DNA of 64,000 bases from Dehalococcoidia bacterium (GTDB lineage Bacteria > Chloroflexota > Dehalococcoidia > Lucifugimonadales > UBA3495). The notes under the pieces are model-generated. The model searched no databases. It saw only the letters and a list, made by a program, of their open reading frames with translations, and had not been told where the DNA came from. The DNA lies in assembly GCA_963667325.2 (NCBI GenBank), contig CAXXKY010000005.1, positions 260,579-324,578 of the forward strand, read 5' to 3'. Both the position numbers and the translations under genes were made by a program. Shown here piece after piece: positions 40,204 through 57,900 of this stretch (its first letter is position 1; each line of letters begins with the position of its first letter).

Positions 40204-40415
40204 GAATACACTGCCGGCCGTCAACGAATTGGGCCACATTAGTGGTGTCAATGGCTCCGATTGGAATGGATTTCAATTGTTAAAGTTTCGCCAACATTTC
40301 TCGACGAGGCAACGAGGATCGATAGAAATGCTTGACGCGGGACATTCGCCACTAATTGGTGCGGATTCCACAATGCCTTTGTGACCCACATCCAAGCAAG
40401 CTGAAGGGGGGTGAA

Positions 40416-40448
40416 TTGTGACCCAGCGTCACAAACGCGCGTTTGTGA
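40416..40448. promoter_or_regulatory. operator-like palindrome cluster
   Basis: Perfect 20-bp palindrome tcacaaacgcgcgtttgtga (40429-40448). It overlaps tgtgacccagcgtcaca (TGTGA-N7-TCACA). The decamer TTGTGACCCA also occurs at 40378, and TTGTGAACCACCCA at 40442. Confidence 0.35.
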
Positions 40449-40884
40449 ACCACCCATCCTTAGAGCGATTCATCCATACGAGCCGCTCAGGGGCTGACCG
40501 GCAGTAAGCGCCACAGGGAACGCTCGGTTTCGACCAGGCAAGAGTGCGGATCGGGGACCGCCCTCCTGTACGGAGGCCCAGTCTCAGTGAGGAGCAACGG
40601 GAGTGCATCCGGGCCGACTGGTCGAAGGGAGTGACTCAACTGGAACCCGACCAAGCGCCTAGAGCCCAGCCGGTGAACCATCCGGCAGGTAGACAGGTAG
40701 CGGCGTGATGGAAATCGTAGCCTGCACTCGTAGTACAGGCCGGCTATTATCACTGAGTTCCAAGACGGCTTTTCCCGAAGCTCGAGCGAAATTGCACCGG
40801 CATGAAGACCGCGCTGTCTGGAAACTGAATGGATCCCCTGAGCCAAGGATACCAGACCCTCAATACACGCTGCCTTGCGTCGAG

Positions 40885-41430
<546 letters not shown>

Positions 41431-41535
41431 TTACCGACAGGCGGTCGTTGCCTCCAGTATCGACCGGCCGGCAAATGGCCGCAAGCGAGGGCTTGGCCAG
41501 ACTGAAACGCCAGGCTCTACCGAAAAGGAACAAAG

Positions 41536-44220
41536 ATGACCATCACCGAAACCGCGCCGCACTACACCCGCCGATTCTGGGCAAAGGCGCAGCCCTACCG
41601 GCAGCCGGGGCCGGAGCGCATCCATCTCCTGGAGCATCACCTGGCCGACGTTGGCGCCTGTTTCGAGGCGCTGCTGACCCAGCCCAACATCCGGCAAAGG
41701 CTGGCCGGATCCGGTGGCATAGAATCCCTGGACCATGCGACGGCGGCGCGGCTGGCCCTCTTCGCCGCCCTGCACGACATAGGCAAGGTCAACATCGGTT
41801 TCCAGACCCGCATCTGGCGCGGCGAAGACTTCCCTGCTGGACAACGCAGACCGGGCCGGGCCGGCCACTACCATGAGCTGGCCCCGGTGATGTCGGGCGA
41901 AAACACCAGCGCTACAGACAAGTTCTTCGGCAGTCTTGACTGGTGGTGGGACGCCACGCAGTCCTGGGACGACCGTGGCGGCGAGACTGTCTGCGCACTG
42001 TTCATTGCCGCGCTGTCGCACCACGGGGAGCCGCTGAAGCTGGAGGGAGGGCTGAATCACAACTCACGTCTGTGGACCGGCATCGGCGGCCTCGACCCCT
42101 TCGCACAGTTGCAGCGTATCGGTGAGCTGGCCCGCCTCTGGTTCCCCGCGGCGTGGGAATCCGGTGGAAATCCTCTGCCGTCCAAGCCGGAGTTCCAACA
42201 TCATTTCCTCGGACTCTGCACCCTGGCCGACTGGATTGGGTCCAATGAGGAGTGGTTCCCATTCTGCAACGAGCCGCGCGACGGATACATGGAACAGGCG
42301 AGAGAACAGGCCCACCGGGCAGTCAAGGCCATAGGTCTCGACGTGGCGCAGCAGCGAAACCAGTTTGCAGGAGTGCCAGACTTTCCCGCCCTGTTCCCCC
42401 ACATCGACGCACCCAACGCCATCCAGCAGGCCGCAGTTGGGGCTCCACTGGATGAACAGTTGCTCATCATCGAGTCCGAGACCGGCTCCGGCAAGACCGA
42501 GGCTGCCCTGTGGCGTTTCGCCCGGATGTACGGAGCTGGACTGGTGGACGGTCTCTACTTCGCGTTGCCCACTCGCGCCGCCGCCACACAACTGCACGGG
42601 CGGGTCACGCGATTCGTGGAGTGTCTGTTTCCTCCTGAAGACCGCCCCGAGACCGTGCTGGCCGTGCCGGGATACGTCAGGGCAGGGGACATCGGCGGGC
42701 ACCACCTACAGAATTACGAGGTGTGGTGGGATGACCACGCCAACGCAGGAACCCGCGCCCGCCGATGGGCCGCCGAGAGCTCCAAGCGCTACCTGGCGGC
42801 ACAGATTGCCGTCGGCACCGTCGACCAGGCAATGATGGCCGCCCTCAAAGTACGGCATTCCCACATGCGGGCCGCCTGTCTCTCACGAAACCTGCTGGTG
42901 GTCGACGAGGTACACGCTTCCGACCCCTACATGCGCCGCATACTGAAGGCCCTGCTTGACACCCACCTGAGCACAGGGGGCCACGCGCTGCTGATGTCGG
43001 CCACCCTCGGCTCGGTGGCCCGCCGCCAGTGGCTGTCCGCCGCCCGGGCGCAGACTGTCGCCGCTCCGCTGCTGGAAGACGCAATCGCCGCTTCCTACCC
43101 TGCCGTCAGCGTAATGGCCCCGGAAGGCGAGAGCGTTGCCTCCGCAGGAGAAAACCGGCAGGAGAAGTCCGTCAGCATCATCGCCGAACCCCTGATTCAC
43201 GAATTCGGAAAAGTGGCCGAGGTGGCCATCCAGGCTGCCCGGATGGGGGCGAAGACGCTGGTCATCCGCAACACCGTAAGCAACGCGGTCGCCACGCAGC
43301 AGGCGCTGGAGCAATACGCCGGGAGCGACGGTTCCCCACTGTTCTCGGTCGACGGTGTCGCATCCCTGCACCACAACCGCTTTGCCCCGACCGACCGGCG
43401 TCTGCTGGACGCCAGGGTGGAGGAACTGCTTGGCCGGAATCGTGCTTCGGGCGGTCTGGTGGCGGTTGGCACGCAGACACTGGAGCAGTCACTGGACATC
43501 GACGTCGACCTGCTGATTACCGACCTCTGCCCAGTGGATGTGCTGCTGCAACGCATCGGGCGTCTGCACCGCCACCGGCGGAATGACCGGCCTGCCGGCC
43601 ACGAATCACCCCGGTGCGTGGTGCTGACACCGGACACCGACGACCTATCGCCGCTGCTGCAGGGGGGAGCCAACAGCACTGGCCTCGGCCCCCACGGCTT
43701 TGTCTACGAAGACCTCCGAGTCCTTGAGGCCACCCGGCGGCTCATCGTCCAGCACCCCGAGTGGGACATCCCCCGAATGAACCGTGAACTGGTCGAGAAT
43801 GCCACCCACCCGGACGTGCTGGAGGCCATCGTAGAAGAACTGGGCGAGGCCTGGAAAACTCACGCCCTTAATGTGGAGGGAAAGGCTATTGCCGAGGTCC
43901 AGGGCGCTGGGAGCAACGTGGTCCGCCGCGACAAGTCCTTTTTCCACGACAACCGCGATGTGCTGTTTCCGCCAAACGCGGAGGAACGGGTACGCACTCG
44001 CCTGGGGGACGAGGGCATCGAGGTTGAATTCGACACACCGCAAGCGAGCCCCTTCGAGGCCACGCGGCACATCGTGAGCATGACCATCGCCGCCCACCTG
44101 CTGCGCGGTGCAACCCAGGAAGGCCCCGTAGCGACCACCGAAACTGAGGGTGGTTTCACCTTCGCCGTCGGGGAACGGCGATTCCGCTACGATCGCCTGG
44201 GCCTGCGCCGCGAGGGGTAA
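41536..44220 (+). CDS. cas3: CRISPR-associated nuclease/helicase Cas3 (type I-E)
   Basis: 894 aa. HD domain ('HHLADV...LHDIGK'), helicase Walker A 'SETGSGKTEA' and 'VVDEVHASD'. Confidence 0.95.
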   Translation: MTITETAPHYTRRFWAKAQPYRQPGPERIHLLEHHLADVGACFEALLTQPNIRQRLAGSGGIESLDHATAARLALFAALHDIGKVNIGFQTRIWRGEDFPAGQRRPGRAGHYHELAPVMSGENTSATDKFFGSLDWWWDATQSWDDRGGETVCALFIAALSHHGEPLKLEGGLNHNSRLWTGIGGLDPFAQLQRIGELARLWFPAAWESGGNPLPSKPEFQHHFLGLCTLADWIGSNEEWFPFCNEPRDGYMEQAREQAHRAVKAIGLDVAQQRNQFAGVPDFPALFPHIDAPNAIQQAAVGAPLDEQLLIIESETGSGKTEAALWRFARMYGAGLVDGLYFALPTRAAATQLHGRVTRFVECLFPPEDRPETVLAVPGYVRAGDIGGHHLQNYEVWWDDHANAGTRARRWAAESSKRYLAAQIAVGTVDQAMMAALKVRHSHMRAACLSRNLLVVDEVHASDPYMRRILKALLDTHLSTGGHALLMSATLGSVARRQWLSAARAQTVAAPLLEDAIAASYPAVSVMAPEGESVASAGENRQEKSVSIIAEPLIHEFGKVAEVAIQAARMGAKTLVIRNTVSNAVATQQALEQYAGSDGSPLFSVDGVASLHHNRFAPTDRRLLDARVEELLGRNRASGGLVAVGTQTLEQSLDIDVDLLITDLCPVDVLLQRIGRLHRHRRNDRPAGHESPRCVVLTPDTDDLSPLLQGGANSTGLGPHGFVYEDLRVLEATRRLIVQHPEWDIPRMNRELVENATHPDVLEAIVEELGEAWKTHALNVEGKAIAEVQGAGSNVVRRDKSFFHDNRDVLFPPNAEERVRTRLGDEGIEVEFDTPQASPFEATRHIVSMTIAAHLLRGATQEGPVATTETEGGFTFAVGERRFRYDRLGLRREG

Positions 44221-44260
44221 CGTGGTGAGGGCCAAATTGCTGACAGTCCTTCGTTGAAAA

Positions 44261-44290
44261 GGTGGTGCCTTTGCACCATCATCTGATTTG
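44261..44290 (+). terminator. possible attenuator/terminator hairpin between cas3 and cas8e
   Basis: 8-bp stem ggtggtgc/gcaccatc with loop cttt (44261-44280), followed by atctgatttg. The U-tract is weak. Confidence 0.3.
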
Positions 44291-44333
44291 ACTGACTAAC
44301 GTAATGCATTTCGGAAAGGGCGGAACGATACCA

Positions 44334-45944
44334 ATGTACAACCTACTTACCGAACCCCTGATCCGGTACCGACAGTCCGGCGGAGCGACACGCGAGGCGG
44401 CCTTGCCCGAGGTCTATGCCGCGCTGATGGCCAATGAGGTGGAGGCCTTTCCCGCCCTGCGTCCACATCAGCGTCACGCCTGGCACGCCTTCCTAGTGCA
44501 GCTCGGCGCGATGGCAATGCACCGGGACGGGCTGGACACGCCGGCGTCCGACGCCGATGAGTGGCGCCGCATCATCCGCACCCTAACGCCTGGGTGGCCG
44601 GACGATGAACCGTGGCAACTGGTGGTGGACGACATCACCACGCCCGCCTTTATGCAACCGCCGGCCAGCTCCCAGGAACAGGGAAAGGACTTCAAGAACA
44701 CGGTAGCGACTCCAGACGACCTGGACATGCTGGTAACCTCCAAAAACCACGACCTCAAGGCCGAGGTGGCGGAGCAGGCGGGCAATGATGACTGGATATT
44801 CGCTCTGGCCACACTGCAGACCACGGAGGGCTTCGGTGGCGCAGGAAACTACGGAATATCGAGGATGAACGGCGGTCTGGGCAATCGGTCTGCCTTTGCT
44901 CTGGCCCCAGCAGAATCAAGTCCCGGCTCGCACGTCCGGCGGGATATTGAGGCCCTCTTGGAGTTCCTGCCAGGGGTAATGGCCGACCACCCGGGAACGG
45001 CCTCAGGCCACACCCTGCTGTGGACACTGCCCTGGGACGGGAACGCGGCCGAGGCGCTGACACTCAACCGCCTGCATCCGCTGTACATAGATGTGTGTCG
45101 CCGCATACGGTTGAGTCTTGATGTGCAAGGCCGAGTCCGTGCTATGAGGACCAGTTCCAAGGCGGCCCGCGTCGAGGCCAAGTCCCTCAACGGGCTCACA
45201 GGTGATCCCTGGGCTTTGGTGGATCATCGCGACAAGAAGGGCGACAAGGTGTTGACTCTGCCCAGCGGGGGCTTCACCTACAAGCGAGTCGCCGAGTACC
45301 TCACCTCGGCCGACTACGACCGTCCGGCCCTCCTGAGCTCCACTCAGGCGGAGAGACAATCGCATGAGCCCTTGGAGTTGGTGGCCCGGGCCATGGTGCG
45401 GGGTCAAGGCAAGACCGAGGGCTATCACGAACGCAGGGTGCCGGTGAGGCACAGGTTCAAGATGGCCATTATGCGTCGCGGCGGCGGCGGGTTGGACGAC
45501 GTAGCAGCAATCTCGCAGGCGAGGATCGAGGACGTGGGCAAGGTCCAGCGAATCCTGAGCCATGCCATCCAGACCTTTGCGAACCGGGGAGATTCCGCCA
45601 ACAGCCAGCCGGAGCACCGGGAGCGCGCACGACCGTGGCTGAATCGCTTGGACGAAATTGTCGACACCACATTCTTCGATGCATTGCAGGACGAGTTCGA
45701 GGAAACGGGCGCCAGTGAGCGACTCCGAATCCGCCATCACTGGCTCCTGAATGAAGGGGAGCCCAAGGGTGTGATCGACCACGCCCGCGCCTTGCTTCAT
45801 AACGCCGAGGATTCGATGCCCTGCCCCTCCATCTGTTACTACAAGGCCCGAGAGGCCGCAGATGGGTTGTTCGAGGGCCGCATTCGCGGGAGCAGCGGCT
45901 TTCCCGACCTGTTCCCAGACTCCCGTCAGGAGGATCAAGAGTGA
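44334..45944 (+). CDS. cas8e: Cascade large subunit Cse1/CasA (Cas8e)
   Basis: 'MYNLLTEPLIRY......LPEVYA......V..FPALRPHQRHAWH.FL.QL' is the typical Cse1 N-terminus. The start is set at ATG 44334. Confidence 0.9.
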   Translation: MYNLLTEPLIRYRQSGGATREAALPEVYAALMANEVEAFPALRPHQRHAWHAFLVQLGAMAMHRDGLDTPASDADEWRRIIRTLTPGWPDDEPWQLVVDDITTPAFMQPPASSQEQGKDFKNTVATPDDLDMLVTSKNHDLKAEVAEQAGNDDWIFALATLQTTEGFGGAGNYGISRMNGGLGNRSAFALAPAESSPGSHVRRDIEALLEFLPGVMADHPGTASGHTLLWTLPWDGNAAEALTLNRLHPLYIDVCRRIRLSLDVQGRVRAMRTSSKAARVEAKSLNGLTGDPWALVDHRDKKGDKVLTLPSGGFTYKRVAEYLTSADYDRPALLSSTQAERQSHEPLELVARAMVRGQGKTEGYHERRVPVRHRFKMAIMRRGGGGLDDVAAISQARIEDVGKVQRILSHAIQTFANRGDSANSQPEHRERARPWLNRLDEIVDTTFFDALQDEFEETGASERLRIRHHWLLNEGEPKGVIDHARALLHNAEDSMPCPSICYYKAREAADGLFEGRIRGSSGFPDLFPDSRQEDQE

Positions 45945-46573
45945 CCACCAGCAAAATAGTGGAAGCGCCCGGCTCCGAACTACAGCCGGAACAACAGGAC
46001 GAAAGTACCCAGCCGTGGCCGGACCGGGCCGTCAGCATGGCGGGTTACATCGCACAGTACGCCGAGCATCGCCGGGGCGACCATGCCGAATTGCGGCGCA
46101 TGGACCACGACGAACCCGACGCGGCGGCCTTCTGGCGACTGATGGCCCATCACGACCTGCTGAACAGCAACGAGGAAGCGGAACGCAAGTGGGGCCTCAT
46201 CATCCACGGCATCGCACTGATGACGCCCAGCAACAGCGGCGAAAGCAATCCCAACACGGCCCATAACGGCTCGATGCCCGTGGGACGAGCGCTGTACCTC
46301 GGCAGTGATACGCAACGAGCATCGGCCTTTTACAGCGAAGCCCGGCTCAACCGTCTGCTAACGTCGGGCGGGCCGATGTTGCGTACCCTGCTGGCCCGGA
46401 TGTTCCGAATGCTGGCCGCGTCCGGAGTTACCTTCAACTGGCGGGAAATGGCCCGATTCATCCTGAATGAAGACTACAACGATGACGCGACCGAACAGAA
46501 CCGCCGCCGCATTGCCCGCGAATACTACCGTGCGGAACGCCGCTCCAACCGATCCAGTTCCGAATCCGATTGA
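45941..46573 (+). CDS. cse2: Cascade small subunit Cse2/CasB (Cas11e)
   Basis: 210 aa, helical. Its position between cas8e and cas7e, with a GTGA overlap, and the '...RRIAREYY' tail fit Cse2. Confidence 0.85.
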   Translation: MTTSKIVEAPGSELQPEQQDESTQPWPDRAVSMAGYIAQYAEHRRGDHAELRRMDHDEPDAAAFWRLMAHHDLLNSNEEAERKWGLIIHGIALMTPSNSGESNPNTAHNGSMPVGRALYLGSDTQRASAFYSEARLNRLLTSGGPMLRTLLARMFRMLAASGVTFNWREMARFILNEDYNDDATEQNRRRIAREYYRAERRSNRSSSESD

Positions 46574-46602
46574 CGACTGAAACAGACGAAGGAGACTGAC
46601 CA

Positions 46603-47775
46603 ATGACCACCCCGAGGTTCCTGCAAATTCACACCCTCCACTCCTACCCGGCCGCGTTGCTGAACCGCGACGACAGCGGCCTCGCCAAGCGGATGCCCTT
46701 CGGAGGCGCTGTCCGCACTCGCATTTCCTCCCAGTGCCTGAAGCGGCACTGGCGCACTGCCCAGGACGAGTTCGCCATTCACGGAATCGCTGGCAGCACA
46801 GAGGCCATCAGGTCGCGCAATCTCGTGGAGCGCAGGGTGATCGCGCCCCTCAGAGGAGCTGATGGCATCAGCGACGACGTGCTGGCCGCTGTGGAAAACG
46901 CGTTCAACGTCGGCGTGTACGGCAGCAGCGGCGCCACCGAACGGGGCCGCCAGCCCTTGCTGCTGGGCGTGCCAGAGGTGGAACACCTACACCAGCGGGC
47001 CGCCGCCATCTGCGCCGACCACCCCGTAGACGTCAAGGCCGCCGGCGACGCTGCGACCGACCTGTTCAGCGGCCGGCGAGGCGAGGGTAACAACTTCCGC
47101 GCCCTGATGGACGGTGCCCGCCTGCCCGCCGGACTGGAGGGAGCTCTGTTCGGGCGAATGGTGACCTCCGACCCCGGGGCCAACATCGAGGCTGCCATCC
47201 ACGTGGCCCACGCCTTCACCGTCCACCGGGAGGAGAGCGAGTGCGACTACTTCTCCGTGGTGGACGACCTCCAAGGCGACGACGAGGACGCCGGTGCCGC
47301 CCACATCGGCGACATGGAGTTGACCGCCGGACTGTTCTACGGTTACGTGGTGGTGGACGTGCCGGGGCTGGTCTCCAACCTGGAGGGATGCGACTCCGGC
47401 GACTGGCTGGACGCCGACCGGGGCCTGGCCGCCAAGGTGGTCGAACACCTGACTAACCTCATCGCCACCGTGTCTCCCGGGGCCAAGCTCGGCTCCACCG
47501 CGCCCTACGCCTGCGCCGACCTGATGCTGATCGAGGCGGGAAGCCGCCAACCGCGCATCCTGGCCAACTCTTACCGCACTCCGTCGAGACCCCAGTTCGC
47601 CGAAGCCATCGGCACGCTGTCCGGTTACCTGGGGAAGCTCGACAACGCCTACGGCGTCAAGGGGACCCGCCGCTTCATGTCAGTGGAGGACTGCGACATT
47701 CCCGGTGCGGAACGCCTGAACCTGGACGAACTGGCGTCGTGGGCCGCCGACGCCATCCTGAAGGGCGCGGTGTGA
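46603..47775 (+). CDS. cas7: Cascade backbone subunit Cas7e (CasC/Cse4)
   Basis: 'FLQIHTLHSYPAALLNRDDSGLAKR..FGG..R.RISSQCLKRHWR' is diagnostic. Confidence 0.95.
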   Translation: MTTPRFLQIHTLHSYPAALLNRDDSGLAKRMPFGGAVRTRISSQCLKRHWRTAQDEFAIHGIAGSTEAIRSRNLVERRVIAPLRGADGISDDVLAAVENAFNVGVYGSSGATERGRQPLLLGVPEVEHLHQRAAAICADHPVDVKAAGDAATDLFSGRRGEGNNFRALMDGARLPAGLEGALFGRMVTSDPGANIEAAIHVAHAFTVHREESECDYFSVVDDLQGDDEDAGAAHIGDMELTAGLFYGYVVVDVPGLVSNLEGCDSGDWLDADRGLAAKVVEHLTNLIATVSPGAKLGSTAPYACADLMLIEAGSRQPRILANSYRTPSRPQFAEAIGTLSGYLGKLDNAYGVKGTRRFMSVEDCDIPGAERLNLDELASWAADAILKGAV

Positions 47776-48551
47776 TGATGGCGAAACACCTGGTTCTGAC
47801 CCTCGAGGCGCCTCTGATGAGCTTCGGCGGCGAGACCGTCGATAATCTGGGGGTCATCCGTCCCTTCCCTGCAGTCTCCATGCTGACCGGCCTGCTGGCC
47901 AACGCCTTGGGCTGGCGACGCGTCGAACGCCAGCGCCACCAGGACCTGCAGGACCGGCTGGTCTTCGCTGCTCGCATTGACCGCGAATCCCACGGAGGCC
48001 TGCGAATGACGGACTTCCAGACGGCGCAACTGGGAGCTAATGACAAGGGCTGGACCACCCGGGGAGCACCGGACGAGCGGGCCGGAGGTGCCAACACTTA
48101 CAATGCGCCGCACCTTCGCTATCGGGACTACCACGCGGATATGCGAGTGACCGTTGCCCTTCGTCTCGACCCGGCGGATGGCAATCCAACGCTGGAGGAT
48201 CTGGCCACAGCGCTGGACGAACCGATGCGCCCCCTGTTCATCGGGCGCAAACCCTGCCTCCCGTCGGCCCCACTGTTTGGAGGATACAGCGACGGCAGCA
48301 CCGCCCTGGAAGCGCTGCTGTCCGTGCCGTTGGCCGATGAACCGGCCAGTAGAACAACCATCCGGGTCCAGTGGCCTGAAGGCGAGGGTCCGGGATGCGC
48401 AGAGGGTGCCGAACGCGGCCGCGCCCAGATGATCACCGATGAGCGGAACTGGGTTTCGGGCCTGCACGGTGGCGGCAGGCCGATCCGGCAAGCCGCCATT
48501 GAGCGGGAGAAGTTCGCTGCTGGAAAACCGCAGGAGGAAGGGCAACCATGA
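47775..48551 (+). CDS. cas5: Cas5e (CasD)
   Basis: 'LVLTLEAPLMSFGGETVDN.G....FP..SMLTGLLANALGW'. The ATG overlaps the cas7 stop. Confidence 0.9.
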   Translation: MMAKHLVLTLEAPLMSFGGETVDNLGVIRPFPAVSMLTGLLANALGWRRVERQRHQDLQDRLVFAARIDRESHGGLRMTDFQTAQLGANDKGWTTRGAPDERAGGANTYNAPHLRYRDYHADMRVTVALRLDPADGNPTLEDLATALDEPMRPLFIGRKPCLPSAPLFGGYSDGSTALEALLSVPLADEPASRTTIRVQWPEGEGPGCAEGAERGRAQMITDERNWVSGLHGGGRPIRQAAIEREKFAAGKPQEEGQP

Positions 48552-49303
48552 CCACATTACTAGGCCACCAAGTGGCCGCCGGAACCCTGCAGATGGTTCG
48601 CGCCGAGGTCAATGTTCGCGACTTCCAGCGCTGGATGGGCACAAGGCGCCTCCAGGACCCGGACCACGCCATGCACTGCCTGCTGACCGAGTGCTTCGGC
48701 GATCTGGCCCCCAAGCCATTCCGCTTGATGCTGACTCGTGGAGCATCCACCGGCTGCCTCTATGGATATGGCTCCGCCGATGCTGATGCCTTGCGCGAGG
48801 TCGCCGCGGCATGCGCCGACCCCCTGCAATCCCGCATCCTCCCCGCCGGCAGCATTGACAGCAAGCCGATGCCCTCGATGTTCCAGACGGGCAGGCGCCT
48901 TGGTTTCGAGGTCCGCATTCGCCCCATCGTCCGTCGAACCGACAAAGCCGCAGAACGCCCGGGCAAGGAGTGCGACGCCTTTCTGCACCAGGCTTTGCAA
49001 CACCCGAGAGGGGATGGATTTGCACGCACCCGCGAACAGGTGTACGCCGAATGGCTGTCGGTGCGGTTCGAACAGAAGGGAGGCGCAGACCTCGACCTCG
49101 ATTCGGCCAAGCTGGTGTCCTTCCAGCGCACCCGCGCTCACCGCAAGCTGCGCGCCCGCCACACCGAGGGCCCCGACGCGGTGATGCGGGGCGTCCTGAC
49201 CGTCTCAGATCCCGAGTCCTTCGCCAGCACCCTGGCACATGGCATCGGACGCCACCGGTCCTACGGTTTCGGGATGCTGCTGCTACGCCCCACCCGACAG
49301 TAA
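48548..49303 (+). CDS. cas6: Cas6e (CasE/Cse3) crRNA endoribonuclease
   Basis: 251 aa ending 'GIGRHRSYGFGMLLLRP', the G-rich loop typical of Cas6e. The ATG overlaps the cas5 stop. Confidence 0.9.
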   Translation: MTTLLGHQVAAGTLQMVRAEVNVRDFQRWMGTRRLQDPDHAMHCLLTECFGDLAPKPFRLMLTRGASTGCLYGYGSADADALREVAAACADPLQSRILPAGSIDSKPMPSMFQTGRRLGFEVRIRPIVRRTDKAAERPGKECDAFLHQALQHPRGDGFARTREQVYAEWLSVRFEQKGGADLDLDSAKLVSFQRTRAHRKLRARHTEGPDAVMRGVLTVSDPESFASTLAHGIGRHRSYGFGMLLLRPTRQ

Positions 49304-49334
49304 AATCGACACCCGCACCTTACCAATCGAATAC

Positions 49335-49424
49335 ACCTCCCTCGCAAACGCGGGGACAGGCAGTAGGCCGGCACGCAGGCCGAGATCCGAAATCAAACTC
49401 CCCCACGCAGGGAAAGGAGAATTC
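49335..49424 (+). repeat. degenerate CRISPR-repeat-like elements (psi-R1, 32-nt spacer-like segment, psi-R2) in the cas6e-cas1 gap
   Basis: psi-R1 (49335-49363, acctccctcgcaaacgcggggacaggcag) matches 20/29 positions of the array repeat and keeps the 6-bp hairpin. 61 nt later (49396), ctcccccacgcagg resembles the 5' half of the repeat. Confidence 0.5.
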
Positions 49425-49426
49425 CC

Positions 49427-50356
49427 ATGCTGAGAGGTCGCTTGGGGCTGGAGACAGCCCGTATTCCCCACTCCGACCGCCACGGGCTGCTGTGGCTGTC
49501 CCGGGGCGCGCTCACCGTGCGAGACGGCACCCTGCGCTTCGAGCGTCAGGCCGACCCGGACTCCGACAGCTCCTTGGAGGCCGGCGAGTACGGCATACCC
49601 TTCCAGACCCTGTCCATGATCCTGCTGGGTCCCGGCTCCACGGTCAGCCACGATGCCCTGCGCCTGATGGCACGACATGGCACCGCCCTGGTGGCCGTGG
49701 GCGAGGACGGTGTCCGGTGCTACACCGCGCCCCCGCTGATGCCCGACACCTCTGAAATTGCCCGCAAGCAGATGCGGGCCTGGGGCGACGCCGAGGGCAG
49801 CCGCATCACCATCGCCCGCAAGATGTACGCTTTGCGCTTGGGCGAGGTGCTGCCCCACCAGGGAATCGAGGCCCTCCGGGGAATCGAGGGCGCGCGAATG
49901 AGACGCACCTACCAGACCCTGGCCCAGCGTTACGGCATACAGTGGCAGAGGCGGCGATACGACCGAAACGATCCGATGTGGGCCGACATCCCCAATCAGG
50001 CCATCAACCACGCCTCGGTGGCCGTCACATCGGCGGCGGTTATCGCCGTTACCGCTGTCGGTGCCATACCGCAACTGGGATTGATACACGAACACAGCGG
50101 CGAAGCCTTCCCCCTGGACGTTGCCGACCTGTTCCGCGACACCATCCTGCTGCCCGCTGCTTTCCAGTCGGCCAGGGCAGTGATGGACAATCCGGCGCTG
50201 GATATCGAACGGCACACCCGGCAAACCACCGGGGAACTTCTGCGCACCGAGCGGGTGATTTCCAAGATGATAGACCGCATCAAGACGATCTTTGATGATG
50301 TGGCCCTGCCCGATGCGGAGGCTGAATCTCTCTCCGTTGAGCCGGACGAGGAGTAG
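49427..50356 (+). CDS. cas1: Cas1 integrase (type I-E)
   Basis: 309 aa with a typical Cas1e N-terminus: 'RIPHSDRHGLLWLSRG.L.V.DGTL.F'. Confidence 0.95.
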   Translation: MLRGRLGLETARIPHSDRHGLLWLSRGALTVRDGTLRFERQADPDSDSSLEAGEYGIPFQTLSMILLGPGSTVSHDALRLMARHGTALVAVGEDGVRCYTAPPLMPDTSEIARKQMRAWGDAEGSRITIARKMYALRLGEVLPHQGIEALRGIEGARMRRTYQTLAQRYGIQWQRRRYDRNDPMWADIPNQAINHASVAVTSAAVIAVTAVGAIPQLGLIHEHSGEAFPLDVADLFRDTILLPAAFQSARAVMDNPALDIERHTRQTTGELLRTERVISKMIDRIKTIFDDVALPDAEAESLSVEPDEE

Positions 50357-50359
50357 CGC

Positions 50360-50647
50360 ATGACAGTGGTGGTTACAGTCAACGTGGAGGGTCGATACCG
50401 AGGGTTTCTGGCATCGGCGATGCTGGAGATAGCGCCTGGGGTGTACACCTCTCCCCAGATGACCAGCGGTATACGGGAAAGAGTCTGGGACGTGGTCTCG
50501 CGGTGGTATTACGAATTGGGCCAGGGGTCAATCGTGATGACTTGGCGGGATCCGACCGCCGTGGGTGAGCAGCGAATCCGCACCCTGGGTGAGGCCCCCA
50601 AGGAGATTGTCGATGCCGACGGCGTACACTTGGTGAAGTACAGATAG
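50360..50647 (+). CDS. cas2: Cas2 (type I-E)
   Basis: 95 aa: 'VVVTVNVEGRYRGFLASAMLEIAPGVYTSP.M....RERVW'. Confidence 0.95.
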   Translation: MTVVVTVNVEGRYRGFLASAMLEIAPGVYTSPQMTSGIRERVWDVVSRWYYELGQGSIVMTWRDPTAVGEQRIRTLGEAPKEIVDADGVHLVKYR

Positions 50648-50697
50648 TCGGCAACATGTTCATCCAATAGACCGATACAAAATATGCCAGTGCAAGG
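50648..50697 (+). promoter_or_regulatory. CRISPR leader (only 50 bp between the cas2 stop and repeat 1)
   Basis: More AT-rich than its surroundings. It contains an exact copy of the last 8 nt of the repeat (atagaccg, 50667-50674), ending 23 nt before repeat 1. Confidence 0.6.
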
Positions 50698-51886
50698 GGT
50701 TCCCCCGCAGGCGCGGGGATAGACCGGACCGGTGGGGCAAGGTCCAGGGGGTCAAGTTGGTTCCCCCGCAGGCGCGGGGATAGACCCCATCAGGGAGTGG
50801 CAACGGTTCTGCGCGCAGAAGGTTCCCCCGCAGGCGCGGGGATAGACCGATCGCCTACGAGGCCGAGGGCGACACCAACGCGGTTCCCCCGCAGGCGCGG
50901 GGATAGACCGTCGAGGACGTCGATTATCGAGATGGCCATATCGGTTCCCCCGCAGGCGCGGGGATAGACCGATGCCGCCCACGGTAAGTAAGGGTGAGAA
51001 GGTGGTTCCCCCGCAGGCGCGGGGATAGACCTCATGTTGCCCGCGGCGACGCCCTGGTTGGCGTGGTTCCCCCGCAGGCGCGGGGATAGACCCCTCATCG
51101 ACCGCCGGGTGCCTGGTGTCCTGACGGTTCCCCCGCAGGCGCGGGGATAGACCGGTGTCAAAATTGAGACGCATGTAGTCTTCCCAGGTTCCCCCGCAGG
51201 CGCGGGGATAGACCGAAGAGGCGTGCGGTCCTCATCAATATTGAAGTGGTTCCCCCGCAGGCGCGGGGATAGACCCCTGGCCGAGTTCGAGCAGAGCATG
51301 GCGCAGGTGGTTCCCCCGCAGGCGCGGGGATAGACCGTGCCAGACCTCCAGCGGCCGCAAGGTTCAGGAGGTTCCCCCGCAGGCGCGGGGATAGACCTCA
51401 ACGGTTGGACATCAGGTGCTACGGCAGGGAGGTTCCCCCGCAGGCGCGGGGATAGACCGATACTGAAATAATGTCGGCGTCGGGTTCTCTGGGTTCCCCC
51501 GCAGGCGCGGGGATAGACCCACGCCCTGGCCGTGCTCGGTCTGCAGCTCGTGGGTTCCCCCGCAGGCGCGGGGATAGACCTTGCCCTGGGCGATGATACC
51601 GGCTTCGTTCACTGGTTCCCCCGCAGGCGCGGGGATAGACCGAACCAGACCGGAGCCATCACAGTGACGAACGCGGTTCCCTCGCAGGCGCGGGGATAGA
51701 CCCACCGAGCAGGTAGACCCATCCAACGAGACCCAGGTTCCCCCGCAGGCGCGGGGATAGACCCCATCGTACACGCCGCCTGCTGCGGAAAGACGCGGTT
51801 CCCCCGCAGGCGCGGGGATAGACCGCAGGACCAGAGCGTCACCACCCTGTGCGGTAAGGTTCCCCCGCAGGCGCGGGGATAGACCG
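50698..51886 (+). CRISPR. type I-E CRISPR array, 20 repeats / 19 spacers
   Basis: Repeat GGTTCCCCCGCAGGCGCGGGGATAGACC plus a variable 29th base. The period is 61 bp, with 32-nt spacers and one 33-nt spacer (S2). Repeat starts: 50698, 50759, 50821, 50882, ... 51858. Repeat 17 (51675) has C8>T. Orientation follows from the cas2-proximal leader and the I-E-like ...ATAGACCG 3' end. Confidence 0.97.
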
Positions 51887-51919
51887 TTTATCTATATGTC
51901 CTCTGCAACCGACTGCTAA

Positions 51920-53123
51920 GAATCCTCTGAACAAGTCGGGAGGGATGTGGCATAGTCGAGCTGAAGAGCCTGACCCTGATCGGGGGAGAGATTGATGGAC
52001 CAGCCCACCTTTGCTGACTTGGAATACCAGGGCAAGAAACGCAAGACCCGCCGGGAGCTGTTCTTGGAGCGAATGGACGCTCTGATTCCCTGGCAGTTGC
52101 TGGAGGACCGCATCCGTCCCTTCTACCCCAAGGCCGGAAGGGGGATACAGCCCTACCCGCTGTCCGTCATGCTGAGGGTCCACTGCGTCCAACTCTTCTA
52201 CAATCTCAGCGACCCGGGCATGGAGGATTTGCTCTACGAGTCAGACCCGGTGCGGCGGTTCGTGGTGCTGAAGCTCTCGGGTCCCCTGCCCGACGAGACC
52301 ACCATCCTGAATTTCCGTCATCTCCTGGAGAGGCACCAACTGGGGCAGGGTCTCTTGGCGGAGATAAACGCCCACCTGGAGTCCCAGGGACTGAGGCTCA
52401 GGGAGGGTACCATCGTGGACGCGACCATCATAGAGGCGCCGTCCTCCACCAAGAACAGTACCGGGGAGCGGGACCCGGAGATGCATCAGACCCAGAAGGG
52501 GAACCAGTGGCATTTCGGGATGAAGGCGCATATTGGGGTGGACGCCGGTACTGGCATAGTCCACAGCATGACGGCCACGGCGGCCAACGCTCACGATGTT
52601 ACGCAGACGCGCAAACTGCTGCACGGGGGCGAGAGGGTGGTGTGGGGCGACGCCGGGTATCAGGGGGTCGACAAGCGGAAGGAGAACCTGGGTCTGGCGG
52701 TGGAATGGCGGGTGGCGATGCGTCCGGGGAGTAGGCGGAGGCTGGAACCTGGGAGCGAGGAGGCGATGGAGGAGAGGGCGAAAGCGTCGGTGAGGGCCAA
52801 GGTGGAGCACCCATTCCTGAGGCTGAAGGGGTTGTTCGGTTACGGCAAGGTTCGCTACCGGGGACTGGCGAAGAACATGGAGCGGCTGGCCTTGTTGTTC
52901 GGGCTGGGCAATCTGCTGACGGCGGAGGGCCAACTGGCGGCGTAGTGCGCAATTGCTGCGGGACAACGCCGGTCTCGAGGCCCATCAAGCCTCAAGCAGC
53001 ACAGTCGGGGAGGAAACCCAAGGGGCCGAGGGCCGGCTGGCAAGCACCAGACCGCAGTTCCCACTCCGTTATGCAACTCCATCAAACACAACCCAGACCA
53101 AAACCCCCTTGTTCAGAGGATTC
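51920..53123 (+). mobile_element. IS5-family element, full-length copy (1,204 bp)
   Basis: Ends gaatcctctgaacaag (51920-51935) and cttgttcagaggattc (53108-53123). The flanking tetranucleotides differ: CTAA on the left, CTAG on the right. Confidence 0.85.
51995..52945 (+). CDS. IS5-family DDE transposase
   Basis: 316 aa from ATG 51995: 'FADLEYQGKKRKTRRE.FL..MD..IPW', 'GTIVDATIIEAPSS', 'WGDAGYQG' and 'KVEHPF...K'. Confidence 0.9.
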   Translation: MDQPTFADLEYQGKKRKTRRELFLERMDALIPWQLLEDRIRPFYPKAGRGIQPYPLSVMLRVHCVQLFYNLSDPGMEDLLYESDPVRRFVVLKLSGPLPDETTILNFRHLLERHQLGQGLLAEINAHLESQGLRLREGTIVDATIIEAPSSTKNSTGERDPEMHQTQKGNQWHFGMKAHIGVDAGTGIVHSMTATAANAHDVTQTRKLLHGGERVVWGDAGYQGVDKRKENLGLAVEWRVAMRPGSRRRLEPGSEEAMEERAKASVRAKVEHPFLRLKGLFGYGKVRYRGLAKNMERLALLFGLGNLLTAEGQLAA

Positions 53124-54908: not shown

Positions 54909-57900
54909 ACGGGCCTCGCCGCCGATGGCCGGCTGGCCGGTGGCCGGTGTGTTGGTGTGTCCGGCTCATCGGAGTTCTCTTCCTTGCCGTCAGCACTCCC
55001 TGCCTCCTCATCATTGCTCCCCGATTCTCTGTCGTCCTCGCTCTTGGTTTCCCCGTCGTTGTTCTTGGACTCTTTGCTGCCGGATGCCTCCTCGCTGCTG
55101 CCGCTATCCTGATCGGAGTCGTCTTGATCCCGCGTGCTGTTGCCCGACCCCTCGACAGCCTCAATCTTTACCTTGTAGACGCCGGTGCGGTCGCCGCTGC
55201 CCGAACCAACGGCTATGTAGTATGTACCGTCGCTGGCGGGTTCGAAGCTGATGCTGACGCGCTTTCCGGTGCTGGTGCTGGTCGTGTCGGATATGAGGTT
55301 CCCCTCGATGCCGTAAATACCGACTATCTTCAGGTCGGTCGCCTGGTCTCCCGAGGGGAACTCTTCGGCAGACCAGGCTACGATGTCGTACTCCTGATCC
55401 ACTTCAAGTTCGGGGGTCTTGAACCAGTCCACGTCCGGCTCGTCATCCCAGTACCAGCTCCAGTTGTCTCCCAGGAAAGCCCCCGTGCTCACATGGCCGG
55501 GCTCTAGGACCCGTTTGGTCGACTCACTGGCAGGGATGTCCAGCACGTAGCCGTCCGGACCTCCGAAATACCGGTAGTGCGCCCTGTTGTTTGAGACGTG
55601 GCAGACGTTATTCACCCTGACCCTGATCCGGTAGGTGCCGGTGTCGCCCATTCCGCTCACTTCGACCTGGTGCCAGCCCGTCGCATCCGATCCCCTCACC
55701 AGGTCTATATTGTTGCCGAGCGGACGATGGCTGATCATTTCAGAGCGGTCTCCCATTTGAACGCTCATTACCATCGGGGTAGGCAGGGTTCGAGTCTCAT
55801 TGGGCAGTTCGTCCCCATTGAGGTCCGCTTGAGGGTTGCTGCCGAACACCTCGATCAGATAGACCCTGTAGGGGTCTAGCCGGATTCTCCAGAACTGGCT
55901 GATATTGGTCTCCGTGATCTCTCCCCGGCTGTCGAGGATGATTCTGCGCCCGCTGTCATCGGGGCACTGGGTACTGGCGGCCCCGTTCTCCATATTCATC
56001 AGTTCCACTGTTGTGGTGCTGGGGCTTCCTTCCACCACCCCCGCCGGCAGGTCGCCGAAGCCAAGCGTAATCATCTCTCCCCCGTCTTCCACATCGTCAT
56101 CTATGGCGGTCATCGTGAATGACTTGGACTGTTCTCCGGCTGCGAAAACCACGTCGGCCGGCACGCCATCGAAGTCGTCATTCGTGACTCCATTGATGAG
56201 AGTGAGTTCGATGGGAATGGTCGTGGGCACCGGGGCGACTTCGTTCAGCCTTACAACCACGACTGCATCGTTCCCACCCTCGTGTGCCTGGTATATGGAG
56301 GCGCCGAAGGACACCCGAAGTGAGTCCCTGATGCTGATGGCAGCCTGGGCTGGGGGCGCGACGCTGACGCCCGAGGGCATAGCGCCAAAGCCCAGGGTCA
56401 CCATCTCTTCGTCCTCGTCGTGCGAGTCCTGCTCGGCGATGAATGAGAAGGACTTCTCCGTATCGCCGCTGTTGAACACGACGTCTTCAGGCACCCCGGA
56501 GTAGTCGTCTCCAGATGCCCCAGTCCCATTATTGGTGGTCAGCGGGATGGTGACGGTCCGCTCCGGATCTTCGCTGAGGTTTACGGTAACGGTAACGGTG
56601 CTCCCTTCCATCAGGGAATAGGCGGAGGACTCGAAGGAGACTGTTACGGAGACCTGAGGGTCAGTGGGAGCGTCGTCTGTGATGGAGACCACTGTCTCCT
56701 CGGTCGTACCCTCGGCGACGCCCGTGGGCAGCGTTGTACCGAAGGTCAGCTTCACGCTCTCGCCGTCATCGCTATCGCTGTCGGTGGCTGCAGAGAAGGT
56801 GATGGACTTCTCCGTGTCACCTGCGTTGAAGGTGAGGCTGTTGGGCACCCCGGAGTAGTCGTCACCGGAAGCCCCATCCTGTTCTGTGGTGGAGAGCGGG
56901 ACGATCACCGTCCGCTCCGGGTCGGCGCTGAGCACGACCTTAACAGTGATGCTGTTTCCTTCGGTTACCGTGTACGTGCCTTGATCAAAGCTGACGGTCA
57001 CGGGGACATTGTTGTACGAGTAAACCCGGTCGAAGGGCGAGACGTCATCGGATGCGCTGTTGACGACCCATACGGTGTCATCGTCTCCCCATATCCCGGC
57101 GGCGTCCGAGTTGGATGAATGCAGGTTGATGTCGTAGCCGGCAATACGCGTACCCGTGAGATCGTATGCATAGAGCTTGTCGTCGGTTTCGTCCACCACC
57201 CAGATGCCGTCGCCGTTCGACCAGATGCCCCGAGGTGCATCGTTATCGCTGGCCAGGTTGAAGTCTTTTCCCGAGTCCCGCGACCCGTCGGCCAAAATGT
57301 AGGCGTACAACTTGTCGTCGCCCCAATCGACGACCCACATGGTGGTCCCGTCGGACCAGATGCCCCAGGCCGTGGAGTTGCCGCTGCTGCGAGTGAAATC
57401 CTTGCTGGTGTCTCGCGACCCGTCTGAAAGCGCGTACGCGAAGACTGTCGTGTTCAGTTGGTCGGCGACCCAGGTTGTGGTCTCATCCGACCAAATGCCG
57501 GCAGGACCGCCGTTGTCGCTGTGGAGGGTTATGTCCTTGGCCGAGTCCCGCGCGCCGTCGGCCAGGGTGTAGGCGTACAGCTTCGCCTCGACCGAGTCCG
57601 AGTCTGCAATCCACATGGTGGTGCCGTTGGACCAGATGCCTGCGGGGGCGGTGTTGCCCGCGTTGCGCAGGGTGTCCAGGTCGTCCGCGGCCTTCCACCC
57701 GCCTTGATCGATGATGCCACGCCCGATGTACACCGTGTACGTGGTCGAGTCCTCAGTGGCGGAGGAATTGACCACGATGGCGAAGGTGTTGAGCCCGGCG
57801 GACAGGTCCACGGTGTGGGCTTCGCCGTTGGTGACCTCGGTCCCATTGATTGTGACCGTGTCGTCGGAGCGGTATGGGGTGGCCGTAATGGTGGCCTGGG

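Follow-up and report, generated by a model that had tools for sequence, protein, structure and literature searches.

boxA sequences located in CRISPR leaders are reported to promote complete transcription of the array (Stringer et al. 2020, as cited in PMC7862264; 10.64898/2026.07.09.737519). When a boxA lies within about 50 nt of a start codon, its effect on expression can be negative instead of positive; at suhB, translational repression is followed by Rho termination (PMC5725501). Adjoining the boxA site, NusB-NusE carries a surface that binds double-stranded RNA and has been proposed to accommodate boxB (PMC3177189). Repeat-derived elements have also been described inside cas loci. In the described CreR elements the downstream degenerate repeat, psiR2, keeps the 3′ handle, and those described in I-E systems, like the I-E mini-arrays, are found between cas3 and cas8e, with the cas8e promoter as their target. 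In synthetic operons, engineered Csy4/Cas6 cleavage sites are used to insulate genes. Our literature search found no paper that places either a boxA or a site for Cas6e between cas6e and cas1.

Here, we analyzed this junction in a type I-E locus of a Dehalococcoidia bacterium, contained in a 64-kb stretch of DNA (hereafter, the window), where a boxA-like motif is followed by a hairpin derived from the CRISPR repeat. As in the CRISPR-leader boxA of Stringer et al. 2020, to the extent that later work reports it, the motif is of the same kind as the host rRNA boxA, is carried by the strand that is transcribed and precedes a long untranslated array, with a Cas6e-type repeat following it. It differs from the leader boxA so reported in lying outside the leader, 1.4 kb upstream, between cas6e and cas1, so that cas1-cas2 are also downstream of boxA, and in being the Chloroflexota variant GCACCUUAACAA rather than GCUCUUUAACAA. 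The arrangement of a boxA beside a short GC stem-loop in nascent RNA is shared with the phage lambda nut site and with the boxB-boxA-boxC region of rrn leaders. However, the stem-loop of the gap corresponds to the CRISPR repeat stem, with Cas6e as its obvious ligand, and is not an N-bound boxB; unlike the gap, the rRNA boxA copies in Chloroflexota have no stem-loop of this type. The proposed action resembles that of the engineered Csy4/Cas6 sites, in which a hairpin of the Cas6 family between cistrons separates mRNAs, and, if confirmed, the present element would be a natural case inside the nuclease's own operon. Like phage solitary repeat units and RNA anti-CRISPRs (Racrs; PMC10651486), it mimics a repeat, stands alone and would be bound by a repeat-recognizing Cas protein, but the host encodes it within its own cas operon, where its position is fixed and conserved and it lies on the sense strand of the operon.

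Organization of the cas6e-cas1 gap

The window carries a complete type I-E system, with all features on the + strand: cas3 (41536-44220), cas8e (44304-45944), cas11 (45941-46573), cas7 (46603-47775), cas5 (47739-48551), cas6e (48548-49303; 251 aa; NCBIfam TIGR01907 casE_Cse3, E 6e-16), cas1 (49427-50356; NCBIfam TIGR03638 cas1_ECOLI, E 6e-81) and cas2 (50360-50647; NCBIfam TIGR01873 Cas2e, E 1e-29). These genes are followed by a 50-nt array leader without boxA (50648-50697) and by a CRISPR array of 20 repeats with a period of 61 nt (50698-51885; 28-nt consensus GGTTCCCCCGCAGGCGCGGGGATAGACC). A preliminary description of this DNA had singled out the cas6e-cas1 gap as unusual, and it is: the gap spans 123 nt, whereas the remaining Cascade genes overlap or lie at most 29 nt apart. 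It is filled by a boxA, a repeat-derived unit (psiR1), a psi-spacer, a decayed repeat (psiR2) and the Shine-Dalgarno sequence of cas1.

The boxA-like motif, GCACCTTACCAATCGAATA (core GCACCTTACCAA), was missed by the preliminary description, although it is the most conserved feature of the gap. It occupies positions 49315-49333 of the + strand, immediately upstream of psiR1, and is a predicted NusB/NusE loading site in the nascent RNA. The motif is single-copy in the window and ends 93 nt before the cas1 ATG, upstream of cas1-cas2 and of the 1.2-kb array; the arrays of relatives exceed 4.5 kb. A degenerate boxA pattern gave more than 120 exact matches in genome contigs, nearly all from Chloroflexota. 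Of these matches, 112 could be assessed, and 41 precede 16S or 23S rRNA by 25-125 nt (21 of them 25-104 nt upstream of 16S and 20 of them 45-125 nt upstream of 23S). In one case checked with Rfam, the boxA lies 24 nt upstream of the SSU rRNA on contig OY761449.1, which also carries one of the related I-E loci (L006). Judged by sequence identity, the gap motif is an rRNA-type boxA, an assignment based on the rRNA operons of relatives. Compared with GYTCTTTAANA, GCACCTTACCA agrees at 9 of 11 positions, where the consensus is gamma-proteobacterial and the host belongs to Chloroflexota. The positions contacted by NusB/NusE are kept (G2, C5, C6 as in Aquifex, U7 and U8), the critical positions G2, C5 and Y6 being retained, and the predicted NusB/NusE-binding sequence is GCACCUUACCAA.

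Two other origins of the motif were considered and rejected. It is unlikely to be a copy of the array leader or an integration signal, because the main leaders of 45 loci share an AT-rich box and the ...AAGG junction but not this motif. Nor does it appear to be the psi-spacer of an upstream crRNA-like RNA with its 5′ handle in the cas6e stop region, because there is no conserved handle-like sequence, the distances vary and no target was found.

Directly downstream, psiR1 (49335-49362) is identical to the repeat at 19 of 28 positions, or at 20 of 29 when the variable 29th base, G, is counted, in agreement with the earlier count over 49335-49363. It is the best + strand match to the repeat outside the array. 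On both strands of the 64 kb, matches outside the array comprise two with 19 identities and four with 18; the second match with 19 (54528, - strand) has no repeat stem, lies 2.6 kb beyond the array, was attributed to chance and served as a control. When the repeat was locally aligned with the beginning of the gap, the score was 28, a value reached by none of 2,000 shuffled sequences and by one of 2,447 genomic windows.

The hairpin at 49340-49355 has the form CCUCGC/AAAC/GCGGGG with one G-U pair, exactly as previously described, and its pattern CCYCGCNNNNGCGGGG occurs in the 20 array repeats and once at this site, nowhere else in the window (chance expectation, 0.03 per window). The C-to-T change behind the wobble also recurs in array repeat 17 (51677-51702), as had been claimed. 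Folding energies are -12.1 kcal/mol for psiR1, -15.4 for the repeat and -12.4 for array repeat 17. With regard to the stem required of a Cas6e substrate, psiR1 has six base pairs of the CCCCGC/GCGGGG type, one of them G-U, and a 4-nt loop; the loop sequence varies freely among the genuine repeats of related loci. An A directly follows the stem (GGGG/A at 49355/49356), as it does in 23 of 25 orthologues and at the repeat cleavage site, and the cut by Cas6e is predicted between G49355 and A49356. The tail at 49356-49362, ACAGGCA, resembles a degenerate 5′ handle and matches ATAGACC of the repeat at 4 of 7 positions. The Cas6e of this locus is expected to recognize the hairpin, and, on the strength of these alignments and of the conservation described below, we regard the gap element as a real, conserved remnant of a CRISPR repeat.

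The psi-spacer (49363-49395) has the exact spacer length of 33 nt and now lies within the 5′ UTR of cas1. It can be partly aligned to the corresponding segment of two related loci (L001 and L004), and we interpret it as a fossil spacer. As the preliminary description had stated, psiR2 (49396-49420) begins exactly 61 nt after psiR1 and overlaps the cas1 Shine-Dalgarno sequence, AAAGGAG (49413-49419), which forms its 3′ part and ends 7 nt before the ATG. Taken alone, the psiR2 match is weak (shuffle p about 0.03, with 4% of genomic windows scoring equally), and its repeat ancestry is deduced from the register and from L001, L002 and L004, which have homologous decayed repeats at the corresponding place. 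Neither the hairpin pattern nor folding detected a repeat-type stem at 49396-49420, where a weak alternative fold, CUCC...GGAG, has an energy of -8.1 kcal/mol. Comparison with related loci shows the psi-spacer and psiR2 to be decayed remains, psiR2 having been reused as the ribosome-binding site of cas1.

A simple consensus scan of 49150-50760 found no consensus sigma-70 promoter; a scan of this kind leaves room for a promoter that may lie inside the short array leader. Transcripts starting at any array-leader promoter would not carry the gap boxA. An Rfam search (E<=1) over 40000-53000 returned a chance snoRNA match only and no known RNA family. An intrinsic terminator at the gap hairpin was rejected, as no U-tract follows the stem; the sole terminator-like call, over psiR2 on the - strand, does not exceed what chance would produce. 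Overlapping open reading frames (48970-49755 on the + strand and 49283-50224 on the - strand) span the gap, and a coding origin of its conservation was rejected because this conservation consists of two short islands split by indels that are not multiples of three.

Conservation of boxA and the hairpin in related loci

To place the element in its phylogenetic context, we compared it with related I-E loci. The search pattern detected boxA in 36 of 40 related cas6e-cas1 gaps, and the other four contain diverged copies recognizable by eye. Its placement in gap and leader is complementary: 32 related I-E loci have boxA in the gap and none in their 45-120-nt leaders, whereas in 7 Binatia-type loci the gap is free of boxA and the 111-nt leader contains canonical GCTCTTTGACA/GCTCTTTGATA. 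In another locus (L134), the Chloroflexi boxA is found in the leader, after cas2, and three distant I-E loci, with Cas1 proteins about 28-31% identical, have a boxA between cas6e and cas1. The complementary distribution points to a role of boxA for the array, and its retention across these loci indicates that the motif is under selection.

Conservation in related I-E loci had been proposed as a check on the repeat-like element, and an orthologous hairpin was indeed found in 25 loci. All 150 pair cells of these hairpins are paired (150/150) and four pairs are invariant, the exceptions being one G-U pair, in the window, and one compensatory U-A pair, in L028. Across the 40 gaps, the best stem match was 12/12 in 21, 11 in the window and 10, with compensation, in L028, and the other 17 gaps score 6-9, which equals the shuffled background; the stem is thus bimodal, either intact (23 gaps) or at background. 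Within the 23 orthologous copies, 3 of 276 stem cells are non-consensus, all of them pair-preserving, against 46-54% of cells in the flanks, 25% in the loop and 33% in the handle region, which has often turned into a Shine-Dalgarno sequence. This contrast of 1% versus 50% between stem and flanks comes from loci chosen for having the hairpin, and the unbiased statement is the bimodality across the 40 gaps.

A genome-wide search for boxA followed, after 3-33 nt, by the hairpin gave 14 matches, all of which (14/14) lie within cas6e-cas1 gaps. The combination of boxA and hairpin is conserved in at least 25 species-level Chloroflexota genomes, mostly of Dehalococcoidia. From this pattern, we consider the hairpin stem CCCCGC/GCGGGG to be under selection. 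Beyond its pairing, the stem sequence itself equals that of the repeat, which argues for recognition by a repeat-binding protein, and its absence from 17 of the 40 related loci implies that the hairpin is dispensable.

The hairpin of the window is the most degenerate of the 25, with its G-U pair and its handle of 4/7, and is located 71 nt from the cas1 start, compared with 12-26 nt in loci with a single hairpin. The nearest relatives of the window (L018, L033 and L052) have one hairpin and no spacer, the repeat-spacer-repeat having collapsed to a single hairpin that abuts the Shine-Dalgarno sequence. Other gaps hold two (L004), three (L007) or four (L020) repeat units with 33-nt spacers in register, and in L046, L048 and L049 an array directly follows cas6e. 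Decayed traces of the hairpin were recognized in the group of L012, L019, L029 and L036. Unrelated GC-rich hairpins occupy the same place in L015/L016, L027, L181 and L182/L188, suggesting that part of the function may be served by any stable hairpin. A metagenome search for closer relatives yielded 15 loci, none of them nearer than the known set. The gap of L039 contains an inserted open reading frame of 152 aa with no Pfam or PHROGs match.

Possible functions of the gap element

The reading that we favor, and consider somewhat probable, combines two activities, namely boxA-Nus antitermination that would carry transcription of the Cascade operon past cas1-cas2 and on into the array, and a Cas6e site that would uncouple the effector and adaptation RNAs. 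The gap would then be a composite RNA-level control region, built from the leader and the first units of an old small CRISPR array. RNA polymerase arriving from the Cascade genes would transcribe boxA (49315-49333), and NusB/NusE and other Nus factors would load on it, by analogy with rRNA operons and boxA-containing CRISPR leaders. Transcription modified by Nus factors would resist Rho and proceed through cas1-cas2 and the 1.2-kb untranslated array. Most likely, Cas6e would bind the hairpin (49340-49355), six nt after boxA, and cut at its 3′ base, which would leave a Cascade mRNA with a Cas6e-capped 3′ end and release cas1-cas2(-array) as an RNA of its own. With the psi-repeat on one side and the first array repeat on the other, the cas1-cas2 message would be framed like a giant spacer. 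We infer Nus loading, antitermination, array co-transcription and Cas6e cleavage at the gap; what the comparison of sequences itself provides is the identity with rRNA boxA, the complementarity of gap and leader, the way in which the hairpin is conserved and the homology among the relics.

A more far-reaching version, which we put forward tentatively and regard as rather doubtful, would embed the adaptation genes in the pre-crRNA. Here, the psi-repeat, cas1-cas2 and the array would form one boxA-Nus unit, from which Cas6e would excise cas1-cas2 as the giant spacer. The resulting cas1-cas2 message would have a 5′-OH end and a Cas6e-capped 3′ hairpin, and the amount of free Cas6e would set the expression of the adaptation module post-transcriptionally. 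In loci whose hairpin and intact 5′ handle lie directly against the Shine-Dalgarno sequence, Cas6e, Cas5 or Cas7 might also occlude the ribosome-binding site.

Other explanations divide the roles of boxA and hairpin differently. The boxA alone might be functional, with the hairpin and the rest being a neutral fossil of an array that once lay directly after cas6e and is being lost. The hairpin is missing in 17 of 40 gaps and survives as decayed traces in one group of loci, boxA is kept in essentially all 40, the only stem wobble is found in the copy of the window, and three loci do have an array directly after cas6e. Neutral decay, however, predicts a continuum of eroded stems, and the observed scores are all-or-none (21 at 12/12, one at 11, one compensated at 10, then background). 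Moreover, the flanks and loops of the hairpin copies are randomized, so the copies are old, and the psi-repeat loops do not track that of the local array repeat, which speaks against a recent transfer of the copies out of the array; we consider a neutral fossil unlikely. It is improbable as well that boxA is mainly a repressor of cas1, a role that would be compatible with the main model and in which a Nus complex near the start would inhibit translation initiation and keep adaptation proteins low. Relatives that lack the hairpin, and the distant I-E lineage, have the motif about 22-50 nt ahead of the cas1 start, and boxA-dependent repression followed by Rho termination at suhB provides a precedent (PMC5725501), but the boxA of the window ends 93 nt short of the ATG, and the complementary distribution between gap and leader points to an array role. 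A nut-like site, in which the hairpin would act with boxA as a generic stem-loop independently of Cas6e (as a boxB-like partner, a stabilizer of the Cascade mRNA 3′ end or an RNase III site), would agree with the unrelated stable hairpins that follow boxA in L015/L016, L027, L181 and L182/L188 and with the double-stranded RNA-binding surface of NusB-NusE by the boxA site (PMC3177189). Yet a generic stem could covary, whereas the 12 stem positions are invariant and equal to the repeat stem in 21 of 23 loci; many boxA loci have no hairpin, and neither do the rRNA-associated boxA copies downstream, and we hold this explanation to be quite improbable.

Two further readings treat the gap as a working CRISPR unit, and both appear very hard to sustain. 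A second, still active array with boxA in its leader, open to insertion by Cas1-Cas2, would fit the gaps with two, three or four repeat units and 33-nt spacers in register. Against it, the repeat units of one gap differ mutually in loop and flanks and are therefore not recent duplications, the leader-repeat junction conserved at the main arrays (...AAGG/GGTTCC) is missing, the first five positions of the psi-repeat are degenerate (46% non-consensus cells), and the second repeat is destroyed in the window; such an array seems highly improbable. The same holds for the CreTA/CreR regulatory RNA favored by the preliminary description, whose account of the sequence, of the repeat-33 nt-repeat geometry and of the repeat origin nevertheless stands. 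In a CreR/CreA element, psiR1-psi-spacer-psiR2 would be processed to a crRNA-like, Cascade-loaded RNA that is partially complementary to a cas or toxin promoter and represses it. The spacing of two repeats by 33 nt is exact, elements of such a type exist in I-E systems, and the psi-spacer is partly alignable to the L001 and L004 segment; as in CreR/CreA and the mini-arrays of Shmakov et al. 2023, a psiR-psiS-psiR unit lies within the cas locus, with one repeat kept and the other degenerate. The element differs from these, however, in sitting between cas6e and cas1 and not between cas3 and cas8e, and in keeping the upstream hairpin rather than the downstream 3′ handle. Since psiR2 has no repeat-type hairpin, a crRNA-like RNA would lack the 3′ handle bound by Cas6e. 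A search for psi-spacer targets, as had been suggested, found no seed+PAM site anywhere in the 64-kb window, the cas promoters included; one seed match, at 56153 with CAC in the PAM position, is within the range of shuffled spacers. Likewise, 11 psi-spacers from seven relatives have no targets within their own 12.7-kb loci. The seed is not conserved, the 123-nt gap leaves no room for a toxin gene, and the nearest relatives of the window retain a single hairpin without any spacer. As far as the sequence goes, the alternatives that the preliminary description had listed, a Cas6e site uncoupling Cascade and adaptation mRNAs or an array relic, fit better than CreR.

Implications for CRISPR regulation in Chloroflexota

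How CRISPR systems balance effector production, spacer acquisition and the full transcription of long arrays is partly understood. Antitermination by boxA/Nus is known from array leaders and, separately, regulatory elements derived from repeats are known from cas loci; both kinds appear fused here at one new position, the cas6e-cas1 junction. For annotation, this suggests that a CreR-type label should not be the default for repeat-like sequences inside cas operons, and that boxA recognition needs lineage-specific consensus sequences.

If the model of boxA-Nus antitermination combined with a Cas6e site is true, the array in this Chloroflexota I-E lineage would depend on read-through from the cas operon, and an antitermination signal could act more than 1 kb upstream of an array. 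Cas6e would also have a second natural substrate, the mRNA of its own operon. Should the version with embedded adaptation genes be true, there would be a direct feedback from the effector and crRNA-processing arm to spacer acquisition.

The cas6e-cas1 gap of the type I-E locus

ORFs and NCBIfam matches identify a complete type I-E system, encoded on the + strand of the window: cas3 (41536-44220), cas8e (44304-45944), cas11 (45941-46573), cas7 (46603-47775), cas5 (47739-48551), cas6e (48548-49303), cas1 (49427-50356) and cas2 (50360-50647), followed by a 50-nt leader (50648-50697) and an array of 20 repeats of GGTTCCCCCGCAGGCGCGGGGATAGACC with a period of 61 (50698-51885). As noted in the preliminary description, the gap between cas6e and cas1 is unusually wide (123 nt), while the remaining Cascade genes overlap or lie at most 29 nt apart. 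In E. coli type I-E arrays, repeat base 29 is a fixed, PAM-derived G. In the window (50726 onwards), the base after ATAGACC varies among the 20 repeats (10 G, 6 C, 4 T); therefore, the repeat is effectively 28 nt and the spacers 33 nt long.

The resemblance of the gap to the array repeat was confirmed. The first unit (psiR1, 49335-49362) agrees with the 28-nt repeat at 19 of 28 positions, or at 20 of 29 including the variable 29th base, and no + strand position outside the array matches better. Local alignment of the repeat with the first part of the gap scored 28, a value reached by 0 of 2000 shuffles and 1 of 2447 genomic windows. Because an ungapped match as good as psiR1, lacking the repeat stem and attributable to chance, occurs on the - strand at 54528, the identity of psiR1 alone is only modestly significant. 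The hairpin pattern CCYCGCNNNNGCGGGG was found in the 20 array repeats and in one further copy, at 49340-49355 (0.03 expected by chance per window), and we consider the hairpin, rather than identity, decisive for the repeat origin of psiR1. Its C-to-U change yields a G-U pair and recurs in array repeat 17, as had been proposed; the two hairpins are predicted to be equally stable (-12.1 and -12.4 kcal/mol, respectively).

The second unit (psiR2, 49396-49420) held up in part: its start at 49396 is exactly one period downstream, but the match taken alone is marginal (p ~0.03). On the + strand, 49398-49419 has a possible CUCC-CCC...GGG...GGAG fold (-8.1 kcal/mol, z = -2.3) in which GGAG, the cas1 Shine-Dalgarno, would base-pair with the CUCC upstream of it; this fold is apparently not conserved in the related loci L001 and L004. 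On the - strand, the psiR2 bases score terminator-like.

Conservation of the hairpin and decay of the mini-array

A Cas6e scan of one genome per species yielded 54 loci, mostly from Dehalococcoidia MAGs, with a Binatia-type group in addition; for each locus, the positions of Cas1, Cas2, array and gap were determined. Across the 40 loci with Cas1 more than 70% identical to that of the window, the gaps share two conserved islands: a repeat-type hairpin just 5' of the cas1 ribosome-binding site and a 19-nt motif, a predicted boxA. The best match to CCCCGC-N4-GCGGGG was complete (12/12) in 21 gaps; the window reached 11, and L028, with U-A in place of the closing C-G, reached 10. The stem is kept in these 23 of the 40 gaps. 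The remaining 17 gaps match at 6-9 positions, the distribution of shuffled gaps. The stem is thus either perfect or wholly gone, unlike the slow neutral erosion of a relic. Conditional on hairpin presence, non-consensus cells in the 23 copies amount to 3 of 276 in the stem, all pair-preserving, versus 46-54% in the flanks, 25% in the loop and 33% in the 5'-handle-like tail. When two further loci are included, pairing is intact in all 150 pair cells, among them one G-U and one compensatory change. The psi-repeat loops do not track the loop found in the array repeat of the same locus, indicating that the copies are old orthologues rather than recent array transfers. On the Cas1 tree, the hairpin looks ancestral and lost several times.

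The preliminary description had also considered an array relic. A pure fossil is at odds with a stem that is all-or-none across the 40 gaps rather than gradually eroded, but the relic reading suits the psi-repeat and spacer remainder: beyond the hairpin, the mini-array is, judged from its layout, a fossil. L001, L002 and L004 share the window layout (psiR1, ~33 nt, and a decayed in-register repeat whose 3' end is the cas1 Shine-Dalgarno), L004 with one additional intact unit, and the gaps of L007 and L020 contain three and four diverged units. The nearest relatives by Cas1 (L018, L033 and L052; 91-94% identity) retain one hairpin, with AAAGGAG and ATG immediately behind it, an arrangement that psiR1 x psiR2 recombination would be expected to produce. 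Loci with a short array directly after cas6e also occur.

Other arrangements were observed. The 789-nt gap of L039 (6805-7593) contains boxA, a near-perfect repeat, an ORF and, ahead of cas1, a second degenerate repeat, placing a cargo gene within the mini-array between two units; the ORF (152 aa, 7080-7538) had no Pfam or PHROGs match. In the leader of L052 (8014-8140), a repeat minus its stem-loop (GGTTCCCCCGGGATAGACC) lies ~60 nt 5' of the first full repeat. L050 (6738-7000) has the order cas6e, boxA, psi-repeat hairpin, Shine-Dalgarno and cas2, with cas1 mostly deleted; here, the element has outlasted cas1. Among gaps without the repeat-type hairpin, a long, unrelated GC-rich hairpin follows boxA in L015/L016 (GCCGCCGGCTGGGG...CCCCAGCCGGCGGC), L182/L188 (CCGGACGGCC...GCCGTCCGG), L181 and L027.

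A predicted boxA in gaps and leaders

The 19-nt motif GCACCTTAMCAAYYGAATA occurs once in the window, at 49315-49333. The search pattern detects it in 36 of the 40 gaps, and diverged copies are recognisable by eye in the other four; it is retained also in gaps that lost the hairpin. A leader-like signal was rejected, as the motif is absent from the main leaders. Scanning genome contigs returned at least 120 stretches, nearly all from Chloroflexota among the matches listed. Among these listed matches, 112 copies were assessable: 21 precede the 16S 5' end by 25-104 nt, and 20 precede 23S by 45-125 nt. On contig OY761449.1, the contig of cas locus L006, Rfam annotates an SSU rRNA 24 nt downstream of the motif. 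BoxA is the NusB/NusE binding site of rRNA antitermination, with classical sites upstream of 16S and 23S. The motif matches the gamma-proteobacterial boxA consensus GYTCTTTAANA at 9 of 11 positions, retaining G2, C5, Y6, U7 and U8, which are reported to be contacted or mutation-sensitive.

A further 69 exact copies among the matches listed (L055-L174; for example L098, L137, L148, L157, L163 and L080) lie away from both rRNA genes and cas loci and may mark Nus-regulated transcripts. A conserved module, '...gcttgccc...agggcaaa...ctaacaaagg.gag' and then ATGCTAGAC, recurs downstream of many of the Dehalococcoidales copies; L139, L141, L142, L151 and L158 have a -10-like box 7-10 nt 5' of boxA and repeated 'ccctgtta' motifs 3'.

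In 32 of the loci whose array could be detected, the Chloroflexota boxA lies in the gap and the leader lacks one. The reverse holds for seven Binatia-type loci: their 111-nt leader carries canonical GCTCTTTGACA/GCTCTTTGATA, and their gaps, of 20-67 nt, carry no boxA. In these seven (L014, L021, L025, L030, L031, L035 and L054; Binatia/Thermodesulfobacteriota-type), the leader is highly conserved and boxA lies ~80 nt upstream of the first repeat. L134, an Anaerolineae locus, has its Chloroflexota boxA behind cas2, in the leader, and three I-E loci with Cas1 just 28-31% identical likewise have boxA between cas6e and cas1. The composite of boxA, 3-33 nt and hairpin gave 14 matches in 185,579 species genomes, all in cas6e-cas1 gaps. 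On this distribution, gap boxA and leader boxA are predicted substitutes for each other. CRISPR-leader boxA is reported to promote complete array transcription against Rho, according to the passages of PMC7862264 and 10.64898/2026.07.09.737519 that cite Stringer et al. 2020.

Candidate mechanism and alternatives

The preliminary description had favored a CreR/CreTA-type mini-array. Described I-E CreR elements and mini-arrays are sited between cas3 and cas8e; in them, psiR1 retains the 5' handle, psiR2 the 3' handle, and the seed is complementary over ~10-15 nt to a cas8e-promoter site flanked by a PAM. In contrast, the window element lies in the cas6e-cas1 gap and its psiR2 has no hairpin. A seed and PAM search with the psi-spacer (49363-49395) across the whole 64 kb gave one seed match, at 56153, within shuffled expectation; this match (56153-56185; seed 11/12, overall 17/33) is preceded by CAC, not an AAG-type PAM, and was judged to be chance. 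Eleven psi-spacers from seven relatives had no match within their own loci. Because the psiR2 hairpin, a target within the sequences searched, a spacer in the closest relatives and space in the gap for a toxin gene are all missing, the element was not assigned to CreR/CreTA.

From the sequence features, the most likely mechanism would be boxA/Nus antitermination combined with a Cas6e cut. Transcription from the Cascade genes would run past the cas6e stop, and boxA RNA, appearing 11 nt beyond it, would load a Nus complex, rendering the polymerase Rho-resistant across cas1-cas2 and the untranslated array. BoxA is absent from the short array leader, where a simple scan found no consensus promoter either. 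Six nt after boxA stands the hairpin, whose stem is the one read by Cas6e in array repeats and which has an A at the cleavage position; Cas6e would probably bind and cut it, so that effector mRNA and cas1-cas2(-array) RNA become separate molecules. In relatives with the hairpin 12-26 nt from the start codon, versus 71 nt in the window, Cas6e occupancy could also block the ribosome-binding site.

The main weaknesses of the antitermination model are the repeated hairpin loss and the unrelated hairpins at the equivalent site in some relatives; a promoter of the leader's own, which is a possibility, would weaken it as well. Besides a pure fossil, the alternatives are a generic nut-like stem-loop, an active second array, and a boxA acting as a suhB-type repressor of cas1. 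Our literature search brought up neither a boxA nor a Cas6e-type hairpin described at the cas6e-cas1 junction. BoxA and the Cas6e-type hairpin are each of a known kind; their fusion, their position and the operon logic they imply are new.
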